43,693 bases of DNA from a virus. Lineage: Duplodnaviria; Heunggongvirae; Uroviricota; Caudoviricetes. How positions within the stretch are numbered: the first letter of the stretch is position 1; the number at the start of each line of letters is the position of its first letter. The notes beneath the pieces are model-generated. The model saw nothing but the letters and a program-made list of their open reading frames with translations, was not told the DNA's origin and searched no databases. The stretch lies in the IMG/VR virus record IMGVR_UViG_2698536506_000010; one strand, 5' to 3'. Below, in pieces: positions 6,845 through 9,527 of the stretch. Made by a program: the position numbers and the translations under genes.

Positions 6845-6869
6845 GAAAAAAGCCGCTGGTTAGGCGGCT
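6845..6869 (-). terminator. Rho-independent terminator (tL1-like) on the minus strand
   Basis: Stem AGCCGC/GCGGCT with a 7-nt loop, followed on the minus strand by a U-run (plus-strand AAAAAA at 6845-6850). Confidence 0.45.
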
Positions 6870-7239
6870 ATTGATTGAAATTAAATGAGCGGGGAGATAT
6901 TTGGCTTGCAGCCCTGCAAAATGTGCTATCAAGGAATTGATACTTATGTCGCCACACTCTGCCGCGCTGATCACCATGCTTTGCACAATCAGGTCGGCGC
7001 ATCATGGTGAAATGAACCACTGTTTCGCTTGTAGCTTTAGGTTTACGCATGCTCTTACCCTCTGTCGTTACCCGCTGATGCGGGAGAAATGCTTTGTGGT
7101 GCAGCGCCGGGTGCTTATCTTCCGGTTGCCGTCGATGCAGCTGCAATTCACTGCACTACAAAACATTCCAGTTATTGCCGGGGTATTTATCCGCGCCCGG
7201 CGCGCGCTTTCCCGCTATTCCCCAACAGCAAGAAATCGC

Positions 7240-7581
7240 TTACTCTTTAAGCTCCCCAACAGTAGAAAGGATATGTTCATGCAAACCATGCGGACCGTGT
7301 GCCCTGACTGCGGAAGTGAGATGTTCAACCAGCCCGATGATTTTGACTTTGAGACAAATTTCACCGGCGTCAGTTGTGCTGACTGTGGTCGCGAAATCAC
7401 TAAGGACGATGTTGTCAATCAGGCCACGGACACGGTCAAAAAACAGATCGACGACATGCTCAGGAATTCCCTGAAAGGAGCTGGCTGGAAGTTCAAGTAA
7501 CTTTAAAAGCTCCCCGGTCTGGGTAAGCACTTCGCTGGCGTCTACATTGAGCAGTAGTGGCGCCATTTTTTTATCTGACAT
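7240..7581 (-). CDS. Hypothetical protein in the N-antiterminator position (113 aa); mutually exclusive with 7273..7500 plus
   Basis: First ORF downstream of the OL/pL region, GAGGGG RBS, followed by the 6845..6869 terminator; but no Arg-rich N-terminus like lambda N. Confidence 0.3.
   Translation of the reverse strand: MSDKKMAPLLLNVDASEVLTQTGELLKLLELPASSFQGIPEHVVDLFFDRVRGLIDNIVLSDFATTVSTTDAGEICLKVKIIGLVEHLTSAVRAHGPHGLHEHILSTVGELKE
7273..7500 (+). CDS. Alternative call: small zinc-ribbon protein (75 aa) antisense to the N-position ORF
   Basis: Two CxxC pairs (CPDCG...CADCG), AGGA RBS, protein-like sequence; same codon register as the minus-strand ORF, so composition cannot decide between them. 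Confidence 0.3.
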   Translation: MFMQTMRTVCPDCGSEMFNQPDDFDFETNFTGVSCADCGREITKDDVVNQATDTVKKQIDDMLRNSLKGAGWKFK

Positions 7582-7777
7582 ATACACCCCTCTGATTGTT
7601 TACCGTCAGCCCCTCGCAAAGAGCTGCTGGTAAATCGTTTAGCCATAATTGCCGCTCTTCCTGAGCCCGCCTATGGTCCGACGCATGGTTTACTGTCGCG
7701 CCGTTCGACTGACCGAATCTCCACTTCGCCGCTGGCTAACTTCGCTCAGCTGTCGATGTTTCGTTTCGATGGGGTAA

Positions 7778-7854
7778 ATTTAGCGTGATGCTAAATTATG
7801 CGCAATAGCAAAATGCTAAATTGTTGAATGGTTTTATTTAGCGTATTGATTAAT
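7778..7854. promoter_or_regulatory. OL operator cluster (three 19-bp palindromes) with leftward pL
   Basis: ATTTAGCgtgatGCTAAAT (7778-7796), cAATAGCaaaatGCTAAAT (about 7803-7821), ATTTAGCgtattGATTAAT (7836-7854); the same half-site recurs in OR. Confidence 0.6.
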
Positions 7855-7892
7855 AAGCGATTAAAAATTTACAGCGAAGGAATTCGGGACGT

Positions 7893-7916
7893 AAAAAAGC
7901 CCGCGCGATGGCGGGC
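7893..7916 (-). terminator. Rho-independent terminator downstream of the repressor gene
   Basis: GCCCGC-gcgatg-GCGGGC hairpin with flanking A/T runs, 20 nt after the cI stop. Confidence 0.5.
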
Positions 7917-7936
7917 TTGAGGGGTTTTGCGTGAGG

Positions 7937-8614
7937 TTATGGGATGTTTAGTATTTTGGCATCAACCACAACGCCGATGATTTTGCAGTTTCCATTAATT
8001 TCTAGCATTGGATATGCGGGGTTAAGGGGCTTTAGGAAGCGTCTGCCGGCATCGATTACAAGCTTCTTAAAGGTCGCTTCGTTATCGCCTTCTAGCTTCG
8101 CGACAACCAGCTTTCCGTTGCGCGGCTCGACTTCAGGATCAACAAGTATCGCTGCTCCCTCGGGTATGCTCAGTCCAGCCGGGGAGGTCATAGAATCCCC
8201 TTTAACGTCCAGCCAGAATGAATCTTCTGAGCAGTCAACAGTCGTGTCATACCAGCGATCTATCGCTCTTCGGTGATAAGGTTCTACAGCTTCCATCCAT
8301 TGCCCCGCGCTTACCCAGCTGATTACAGGATAACTTCCTTTTGTCTCGTTCAGTCCTCGAAATGCAACGTTCGAAGGTTCTTCACTGGCGTGTAAAACAT
8401 CCATCCAGCCAAAAGGCAGATCAAGCGCAGTTTCAATTTTGCGAGCCATCTTATCGCCGATATTGCGATGAGGGTTTGGTCCCAGTAGCTGGCTAAGCGC
8501 AGCCGGACTTGTCTCGATGAGCTCGGCAAACTGCGCTTTGGTCATTCCAGACTCGTGCTGACGCTTCTCGTACAGCGCTTCCAGGTTGGCTTTTCTGATT
8601 TCTTTATTTTCCAT
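7937..8614 (-). CDS. cI: CI-like prophage repressor (N-terminal HTH, C-terminal S24/LexA-like peptidase domain) (226 aa)
   Basis: HTH region (MTKAQFAELIETSPAALSQLLG) plus S24-type C-terminus (GDSMTSP...GKLVVAKLEG); divergent from the cro-like gene with operators between; start placed at internal ATG 8614 to leave the operator region non-coding. Confidence 0.8.
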   Translation of the reverse strand: MENKEIRKANLEALYEKRQHESGMTKAQFAELIETSPAALSQLLGPNPHRNIGDKMARKIETALDLPFGWMDVLHASEEPSNVAFRGLNETKGSYPVISWVSAGQWMEAVEPYHRRAIDRWYDTTVDCSEDSFWLDVKGDSMTSPAGLSIPEGAAILVDPEVEPRNGKLVVAKLEGDNEATFKKLVIDAGRRFLKPLNPAYPMLEINGNCKIIGVVVDAKILNIP

Positions 8615-8631
8615 ACCTGCATTGTTACTGC

Positions 8632-8699
8632 TTTTAGCAAAATGATAAATGTGCAAATTGCTAAATGATGCTTGCGTAGTATTTAGCATAACGCTAAAC
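8632..8699. promoter_or_regulatory. OR operator cluster with divergent pRM and pR
   Basis: TTTTAGCaaaatGATAAAT (8632-8650), a GCTAAAT half-site (8660-8666), ATTTAGCataacGCTAAAC (8681-8699); candidate pR TTGCGT-N17-TAAACT reading toward cro. Confidence 0.6.
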
Positions 8700-8730
8700 T
8701 CCAAATCAAACGACTCACCCGGAGACACCA

Positions 8731-8964
8731 ATGAGAACTGAACTACACCGCTGGCGCAAGGCCGCCACTACCGACGAATGGGCGCAGCTCGCAAAGTTGG
8801 CTAACACGACGCCAGGTTACCTGGACCAGATCGCCTACGGAAATCGCCGGGCATTTCCAGAAATGGCATCTGCTATCGAGAAAGGCACGAAGAATTTTCA
8901 CCGCCAGGCTCCGGTCCTAAAAGAAAGCCTGGTATTCGCATCGCCGCGTGATACTGCGGCCTAA
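8731..8964 (+). CDS. cro: Cro-like HTH regulator (YdaS-family resemblance) (77 aa)
   Basis: First rightward gene after OR, GGAG RBS; motif AKLANTTPGYLDQIAYGNRR...PEMASAIEKGTKN resembles YdaS/Cro-type HTH proteins. Confidence 0.65.
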   Translation: MRTELHRWRKAATTDEWAQLAKLANTTPGYLDQIAYGNRRAFPEMASAIEKGTKNFHRQAPVLKESLVFASPRDTAA

Positions 8965-8981
8965 CCACGAAAGGGAAAGCA

Positions 8982-9527
8982 ATGCATTCACTTGCGTATC
9001 AACAAGGTAACAAATTTTCGCCAACGGCGATGATTTACCAGAATCGCCGGGAGCCTGATTCCGCGGCGTTAAACATCGATGGGATCCGCGCTGCTGTTCG
9101 CGCCTGGGCAGCTGATTGCCGAAGCCGTGAATTTGTCGCCGCGCTGATCGTGGAAGAGTGGCGGGCGTCCGGCGGAACCGGTCTAGATATCCCGACTGAC
9201 TCGCACCGCCAGATGCAGAAAGTGTTTCGATGGATTGATGGCGATACCGAATACGCCGCCAACAACATTCGCCAGCTGGCCCCGGCAATCATGTCGGTCC
9301 TGCCGCTGGAGTACCGAAACCGTCTGGCGCCGCAGAACGACACGATGTCGCTGATCGCCTCTGCGATGAAAGAGTGTGCCGAGGCTAAACAGGCCGTGCT
9401 GCTGGACGCTCCAGAGCATCAGAAGCTCAAAGAGGTAAGCGAGGGTATAGCGTCGCTGTTCCGCCTCATGCCGGAGCAGGTAGGACCGCTGATGACGATG
9501 GTTACATCGATGCTGGGGGTTATATGA
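8982..9527 (+). CDS. YdaT-family protein in the cII position (181 aa)
   Basis: Pattern WRASGGTGLDIP...QKVFRWIDGDTEYAANNIRQLAPAIMSVLPLEYRNRL matches recalled E. coli YdaT; immediately follows the YdaS-like gene. Confidence 0.55.
   Translation: MHSLAYQQGNKFSPTAMIYQNRREPDSAALNIDGIRAAVRAWAADCRSREFVAALIVEEWRASGGTGLDIPTDSHRQMQKVFRWIDGDTEYAANNIRQLAPAIMSVLPLEYRNRLAPQNDTMSLIASAMKECAEAKQAVLLDAPEHQKLKEVSEGIASLFRLMPEQVGPLMTMVTSMLGVI

Follow-up and report, generated by a model that had tools for sequence, protein, structure and literature searches.

The region between positions 7778 and 8699 of a 43,693-nucleotide (nt) viral sequence (Caudoviricetes; IMG/VR record IMGVR_UViG_2698536506_000010), the whole of which is referred to here as the window, is very probably the immunity switch, governing lysis or lysogeny, of a lambdoid Escherichia coli prophage of the H-19B family. 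The window as a whole matches several E. coli chromosomes at 99.9% identity and is itself a lambdoid prophage of that species, in which the order is left operator (OL), terminator, cI-like repressor gene (minus strand), right operator (OR), cro-like gene, cII-like gene (ydaT), and O- and P-like replication genes. The initial annotation placed three palindromes to the left and three to the right of the repressor gene, between divergent cI-like and cro-like genes, and this description was accurate, as all six 19-mers were found where it had put them (Table 1) and the cro-like gene could be recognised as such both by homology to H-19B and by predicted fold (YdaS). We find a genuine, well conserved and functionally coherent, but ordinary, lambdoid immunity region.

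In order to count sites, these were defined as 19-mers with up to three mismatches to ATTTAGC-N5-GCTAAAT, and the background was taken from 100 dinucleotide-preserving shuffles. The whole 43.7-kb window contains nine matches, against 1.48 ± 1.1 expected, a number reached by none of the 100 shuffles; the three matches that lie outside the OL and OR clusters are consistent with chance. The exact heptamer GCTAAAT occurs 13 times in the window, six of these inside the two clusters of about 70 base pairs (bp) each. An unsupervised repeat search recovered the same site families, with no other repeated motif standing out in OL or OR, and revealed a 27-nt inverted match between 7779–7805 and 8672–8698, indicating that the promoter-proximal operator and its flank are common to both ends of the region (pL and pR). 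The centres of neighbouring sites are 25 and 33 bp apart in OL; in OR the distances are 16 and 33 bp, with OR2 and OR3 overlapping by 3 bp. The earlier statement that a clear half-site is repeated six times holds to the extent that all six sites have zero to three mismatches, but only OL1 is a perfect palindrome, and one half is degenerate in OL2 and in OR2. A seventh, weak match with three mismatches (ACTTCGCCGCTGGCTAACT, 7723–7741), 55 bp to the left of OL1 and within a conserved block, is probably a chance occurrence, as its half-sites are poor.

Scanning viral contigs for the bare motif ATTTAGC-N5-GCTAAAT (motif-first survey) returned 120 loci, 73 of which encode a homologue of the N-terminal domain (N-domain) of the repressor, at 100% down to 32% identity. 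The sites stand at fixed offsets from the cI start, namely +18, +34 and +67 and about −836, −811 and −778. At least three of the remaining loci (L008, L116 and L121) carry the same OL1–OL2 pair, and in L008 a match to the C-terminal domain (C-domain) is still visible at the cut end of the locus. The ascertainment bias of this survey was removed in a protein-first survey, for which 80 loci from other species were chosen solely by an N-domain peptide motif. These loci, 69 of them unique, range from Enterobacter to Pseudomonas with N-domain identities of 36–100%, and among the unique ones a site is found at the OR3 position in 68 (up to three mismatches), at the OR1 position in 56 and at the OR2 position in 49 (up to four mismatches), against a background of 0.5%. 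The invariant core across these loci is TTAGC-N5-GCTAA. In the initial annotation, a lack of conservation of the palindromes alongside the cognate repressors of related prophages was to count as refutation; they proved to be conserved, at fixed offsets and with half-sites that are almost invariant, while the spacers vary and the centre of OR3 drifts (footprint of 32 unique OR and 40 unique OL sequences). Among complete E. coli genomes, 28 of 5,426 carry this immunity type, which is nearly invariant there; it is widespread in other Enterobacterales, and the only RefSeq label is ‘LexA family protein / hypothetical protein’.

At the centre of OR1, the five bases ATAAC (8688–8692) are invariant, or nearly so (a few ATAAA), in relatives of at least 55% identity, while the centre of OR3 varies freely. 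This conservation is not due to coding, because the frame is closed in some relatives; a preference of Cro, indirect readout or the pR spacer could account for it. Some Pseudomonas loci (L144–L147, L149, L150, L155, L157, L159 and L173) have only the cI-proximal site, at the OR3 position, followed by GC-rich sequence without OR2 or OR1, which suggests a different context, perhaps that of an autoregulated orphan regulator. In a viral contig whose N-domain is 99% identical (L083), OR is intact and the expected OL position holds unrelated sequence without sites; OL has there been lost or replaced by recombination.

The operator sequence changes together with the DNA-binding domain of the repressor. 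Repressors with a near-identical C-domain and a recognition helix of the form ..V(V/I)SRML.. have operators of the form TTAC(C/T)-N4-(G/A)GTAA in the same place (P0023, P0038 and P0050), and a Neisseriales locus of the SR type (L180) shows the same; the SQ helix goes with TTAGC-N5-GCTAA and the SR helix with TTACC-N4-GGTAA. As the operator changes with the recognition helix despite a shared C-domain, the sites track the DNA-binding domain and not the C-domain. Furthermore, the motif accompanies the repressor N-domain even in loci without detectable homology in the neighbouring cro (below 50% N-domain identity). On comparative grounds, the motif-first survey, the protein-first survey and the footprint with its covariation form three independent lines that tie the sites to the repressor.

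The repressor matches Pfam Peptidase_S24 (PF00717) with 102 bits, against a cutoff of 23.3, and aligns with lambda cI over its whole length, N-domain included (E-value 5e-32), the corresponding segments being VSAGQW/VQAGMF at the cleavage site, GDSM/GNSM and TFKKL/TFKKL. Ala103-Gly104, Ser141 and Lys183 correspond to the cleavage site and the catalytic dyad, and all are invariant in 24 relatives. In an AlphaFold2 (AF2) model (predicted local distance difference test, pLDDT, 82) the helix-turn-helix (HTH) is formed by residues 26–32 and 37–44, the latter being the recognition helix PAALSQLL, and the best structural match found by Foldseek was the lambda repressor C-domain on the RecA filament (template modelling score, TM, 0.86). 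The Klebsiella phage KO-TP1, which shares this immunity type (91% identity in DNA) and whose repressor is 93% identical, is recorded in the database with ‘antibiotic induction’ as its source. The S24 domain named in the initial annotation is present, and RecA-dependent self-cleavage is a prediction supported by the conserved residues and the structural match and, indirectly, by the KO-TP1 record. A weak sequence match of the N-domain (E-value 0.018) to PDB entries 7nkv, 8c3k and 8c3l (‘Phage repressor protein CI’, 66–74 amino acids, aa) spans the recognition helix and the helix that follows it (SYLSQLMSG...GEKAARRIEQ), with the LSQL motif in common.

The start of the repressor at 8614, giving 225 aa, aligns with that of lambda cI. 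RefSeq/PGAP and most database entries use a start that gives 250 aa (ATG at 8689, minus strand, inside OR1), which we rejected: stop codons close the frame in relatives of 51–60% identity that have the same operators, and the conserved residues of the extension (8615–8689) are merely translated half-sites (FS from GCTAAA). The 250-aa call is probably a systematic over-extension of the start codon. No Shine-Dalgarno sequence precedes the cI ATG in any relative examined, and all relatives have an nAnnAT hexamer 6–7 nt upstream of it, which together fit a pRM transcript that lacks a leader, like that of lambda and that of paaR2 in the E. coli O157:H7 prophage CP-933P; the cI mRNA is here probably leaderless too, with transcription starting at the ATG. 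For paaR2, a leaderless mRNA was shown experimentally (PMC8630535).

The conserved hexamers TTGnnn-17-TAAAYT place OR1 and OL1 at about −17 of the putative pR and pL, OL1 lying between the −35 and −10 elements of pL. In the case of pR, relatives retain CTTGC three nt ahead of OR1, and the arrangement TTGnnn-17-TAAATT is also present in Pseudomonas relatives; in the case of pL, TTGnnn is conserved at the −35 position in relatives, and the inverted 27-nt match links this region to that of pR. OL2 overlaps the putative −35 element of pL. An alternative −10 element for pR, TAGTAT (8677–8682), was discarded, as its bases vary among relatives and no −35 element stands at a workable distance.

Table 1 Features of the immunity region and adjoining genes, with window coordinates; promoters are putative, and mismatches are counted against ATTTAGC-N5-GCTAAAT.
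Feature	Position	Strand	Sequence or elements	Description
OL1	7778–7796		ATTTAGCGTGATGCTAAAT	0 mismatches; perfect palindrome
OL2	7803–7821		CAATAGCAAAATGCTAAAT	3 mismatches; right half consensus, left half degenerate
OL3	7836–7854		ATTTAGCGTATTGATTAAT	2 mismatches; right half GATTAAT, a conserved non-consensus form
OR3	8632–8650		TTTTAGCAAAATGATAAAT	2 mismatches; centre −27 from cI start
OR2	8648–8666		AATGTGCAAATTGCTAAAT	3 mismatches; centre −43 from cI start; left half non-consensus yet conserved
OR1	8681–8699		ATTTAGCATAACGCTAAAC	1 mismatch; between putative pR −35 and −10, centre about −17
Putative pL	7777–7805	minus	−35 TTGCGC (7805–7800), 17-nt spacer, −10 TAAATT (7782–7777)	leftward
Putative pR	8672–8700	plus	−35 TTGCGT (8672–8677), 17-nt spacer, −10 TAAACT (8695–8700)	−10 at the end of OR1
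Putative pRM	8621–8649	minus	−35 TTTATC (8649–8644), 17-nt spacer, −10 AACAAT (8626–8621)	−35 in the right half of OR3
cI-like repressor	7937–8614	minus		225 aa; HTH N-domain and S24 C-domain
Intrinsic terminator	7918–7897	minus		3′ of the repressor gene
Cro-like gene	8731–8964	plus		77 aa; YdaS type
YdaT-type cII analogue	8982–9527	plus		Pfam YdaT_toxin, 2e-27; PHROG 163 (CII-like activator)

From this anatomy and from homology we propose the following mechanism. Dimers of the 225-aa repressor would bind the 19-bp pseudo-palindromes (core TTAGC-N5-GCTAA) through the HTH, with Ser41-Gln42 in the recognition helix, and repressor bound at OR1/OR2 and OL1/OL2 would shut pR and pL. Occupancy of OR1 and OL1 would block RNA polymerase, silencing the leftward early operon as well as the rightward one (cro/YdaT/O/P). 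OR2, which has one good half-site, would probably need cooperative help from the lambda-like C-domain; repressor bound there may in turn stimulate pRM, its centre at −43 being the position from which lambda cI activates. OR3 covers the putative −35 element of pRM, and at high concentration the repressor would be expected to shut off its own synthesis. Presumably, the YdaS-type Cro recognises these sites as well and switches the circuit the opposite way. Following DNA damage, RecA would promote self-cleavage at Ala103-Gly104 by Ser141/Lys183, which would separate the DNA-binding domain from the oligomerisation domain and lead to prophage induction.

Several points weigh against reading the region as a switch of this kind. 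Repressor binding and transcription at the region are computational predictions, and a sigma-70 consensus scan of 7200–9100 returned no promoter above threshold, so that pR, pL and pRM were assigned from conservation and geometry alone. The HTH_3 score of the repressor, at 22.9 bits, is just below the curated cutoff of 23; the Cro-like protein belongs to no Pfam family, and its fold match to YdaS has a modest E-value of only 0.03. The 3-bp overlap of OR2 and OR3 is without precedent in lambda, and the three mismatches of OL2, like the three of OR2, are all confined to one half, so that either site alone could be weak or non-functional. These mismatches also speak for an arrangement in which only OL1, OL3, OR1 and OR3 are true operators, OL2 being conserved as part of the −35 region of pL and OR2 as a promoter-upstream sequence or a Cro-specific site: the CAA in the left half of OL2 complements the TTG that is conserved in the −35 element of pL, and the overlap may bar joint occupancy of OR2 and OR3. 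Nevertheless, we consider a four-site arrangement unlikely, as neither OL2 nor OR2 shows any variation in its consensus right half, GCTAAAT, and even the non-consensus left half of OR2 keeps the form AAT(G/A)TGC at an unchanged offset, from enterics to Pseudomonas. Moreover, OR2 is centred at the activating position known from lambda, in which weak middle operators are, as a rule, filled cooperatively.

That the palindromes are read mainly by the Cro-like (YdaS-type) protein or by some other factor, with the S24 repressor binding a different motif, seems very improbable. The overlapping footprints of PaaR2 and YdaS in CP-933P (PMC8630535) lend this idea some plausibility; however, the motif stays with the repressor N-domain in loci whose cro has lost detectable homology, it turns into TTACC-N4-GGTAA when the recognition helix changes from SQ to SR, and no second repeated motif is prominent in OL or OR. 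As for the repeats being chance features of promoter-like intergenic sequence, phage DNA between genes is indeed AT-rich and the TAAAT of the motif resembles a −10 element. The shuffles, the footprint and the locus survey have already led us to reject this explanation, which we regard as having next to no probability: nine matches far exceed expectation, both halves of the dyad are conserved, and the offsets are fixed over the 69 unique loci, well above background. The preferred reading is that of an immunity switch with six operator sites that the S24 repressor would bind.

Among characterised systems, the closest relative is the Stx1 phage H-19B, and by homology and layout the region joins the H-19B-like family as a new member. 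Identity is 51% between the cI N-domains and 58% between the 77-aa Cro-like protein and the Cro annotated in H-19B; both phages have OR sites at +18/+34/+67 from the cI start, a 3-bp overlap of OR2 and OR3 and a −35 element (TTGCGG in H-19B) three nt before OR1, and both use 19-bp sites in the frame ATTTAnC-N5-GnTAAAT. The half-sites of H-19B are mostly TTATC/GATAA, whereas here they are TTAGC/GCTAA, each phage having some of the other kind, and the recognition helix reads SPSQLTQV in H-19B and SPAALSQL here. The C-terminal half of H-19B cI aligns weakly with the repressor described here (37% over 183 residues) and, unlike the prophage in the window, H-19B has a lambda-type cII and an annotated N gene. 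The H-19B immunity region (cI, cro and OR) is the subject of Neely & Friedman 1998 and Shi & Friedman 2001, as cited in a review (PMC8065619), a passage of which reports four OR sites for this phage. No fourth OR site is evident in the region studied here.

The logic of the switch and the order of its genes are those of lambda, the C-domains are 42–47% identical, and the cleavage site and the Ser/Lys dyad are kept. The lambda operators occupy comparable positions: in lambda as here, the centres of OR1 and OL1 fall near −17 of their promoters (putative here), and that of OR2 falls near −42/−43 relative to the cI start, from where bound repressor activates in lambda. In contrast to lambda, the sites are 19 bp long and of different sequence, the OR spacing is 16/33 bp instead of 23/24 bp, Cro is of the YdaS (XRE-HTH) type and not of the lambda Cro fold, and the cII analogue is YdaT; rexAB is missing from the stretch that separates cI from OL, and no gene could be recognised as N. 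The DNA coding for the C-domain is 76–77% identical to that of P22 c2, which indicates mosaic exchange at the domain boundary. The N-domain and operators of P22 are unrelated in sequence, the operators being 18 bp long and of a different sequence.

CP-933P shares the YdaS-type Cro and the YdaT-type cII, and its YdaS acts as Cro according to footprinting (PMC8630535). In that prophage, 18-bp palindromes with a related half-site, GTTTAGTAA, have been footprinted and OL-like repeats have been reported beside the PL promoter (PMC8630535, PMC9986795). It differs in that PaaR2 lacks an S24 domain, is not SOS-inducible and is co-transcribed with a toxin-antitoxin pair, and in having four equally spaced palindromes as opposed to the 16/33-bp layout of OR described here. 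A literature search for ATTTAGC as an operator found no description of it, returning only unrelated titles.

The idea, put forward in the initial annotation, that the half-site defines the immunity specificity of this prophage was overstated, since TTAGC-N5-GCTAA and the accompanying layout serve N-domains of 36–60% identity from Enterobacterales to Pseudomonas. It is conceivable, although rather doubtful, that the persistence of this core and of the +18/+34/+67 layout, with its overlapping OR2/OR3 pair, across N-domains of about 36% identity marks, provided that these repressors do read one and the same half-site, either an unusually broad, cross-genus, cross-immunity supergroup or a family in which heteroimmunity resides outside the half-site. 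In the latter case, specificity would be coded in the central bases, the flanks or the cooperative geometry, and the family would constitute a natural series for following how immunity specificity diverges around a constant core code. The change from SQ to SR together with that from TTAGC-N5 to TTACC-N4 would then represent a simple switch of recognition code. The covariation of SQ/SR with TTAGC/TTACC suggests a concrete recognition rule, and operators, likely promoters and the correct start codon are now defined for an immunity type seldom found in E. coli. Placement in the H-19B family should help in annotating prophages, in predicting groups of superinfection immunity and in designing reporter or induction experiments. 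How a lambdoid switch is understood to work is unchanged by these results.

On the rightward side, the Cro-like protein matches PHROG 35, and sequence searches of Pfam, NCBIfam and PDB gave no match. Its AF2 model (pLDDT 80.6) most resembles the N-domain of CP-933P YdaS (8co2/8c7k; TM 0.66–0.68, root-mean-square deviation about 2 Å), so that on the modelled fold the gene qualifies as a YdaS-type Cro analogue of XRE-type HTH fold, first in the rightward operon and with ydaT next to it. TTGATT-N6-AATCAA, the YdaT motif, does not occur in the immunity region. On the other side of the repressor gene, the stem of the intrinsic terminator is kept in relatives, including a paired change of G-C to A-T on both arms. 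Folding of the pL leader (7690–7772, minus strand; z = −0.75) indicated no nut- or put-like structure, and an Rfam scan of the whole window gave no match at the gathering threshold.

The position usually taken by N in lambdoid phages is occupied by a gene (6868–7050, minus strand) for a basic protein of 60 aa (MRKPKATSE...RRPDCAKHGDQRGRVWRHKYQ...), which matches PHROG 17199 from end to end (E-value 3e-24). No homologue of N_peptide was found here; two relatives (L206 and L209) have one at that place. The gene overlaps the 5′ part of a plus-strand gene (6946–7500) annotated by PGAP as a 184-aa ECs_2282 zinc-binding protein, in which the family domain spans residues 118–173 only, and this plus-strand gene is probably over-extended.

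Apparent mosaic junctions lie at about 7727 and 7648 (query positions 128 and 49), the exact points at which many of the immunity-module matches in E. coli and phages start. About 50 bp to the left of OL1, the conserved block CCGCCGCTGGCTAACTTCGC... is met by left flanks of two different kinds. In the interval separating OL from the cI terminator, immediately to the right of OL3, an AT-rich block at 7855–7880 (AAGCGATTAAAAATTTA) is conserved down to about 78% N-domain identity and contains a second GATTAAA, 11 bp past the GATTAAT half of OL3.

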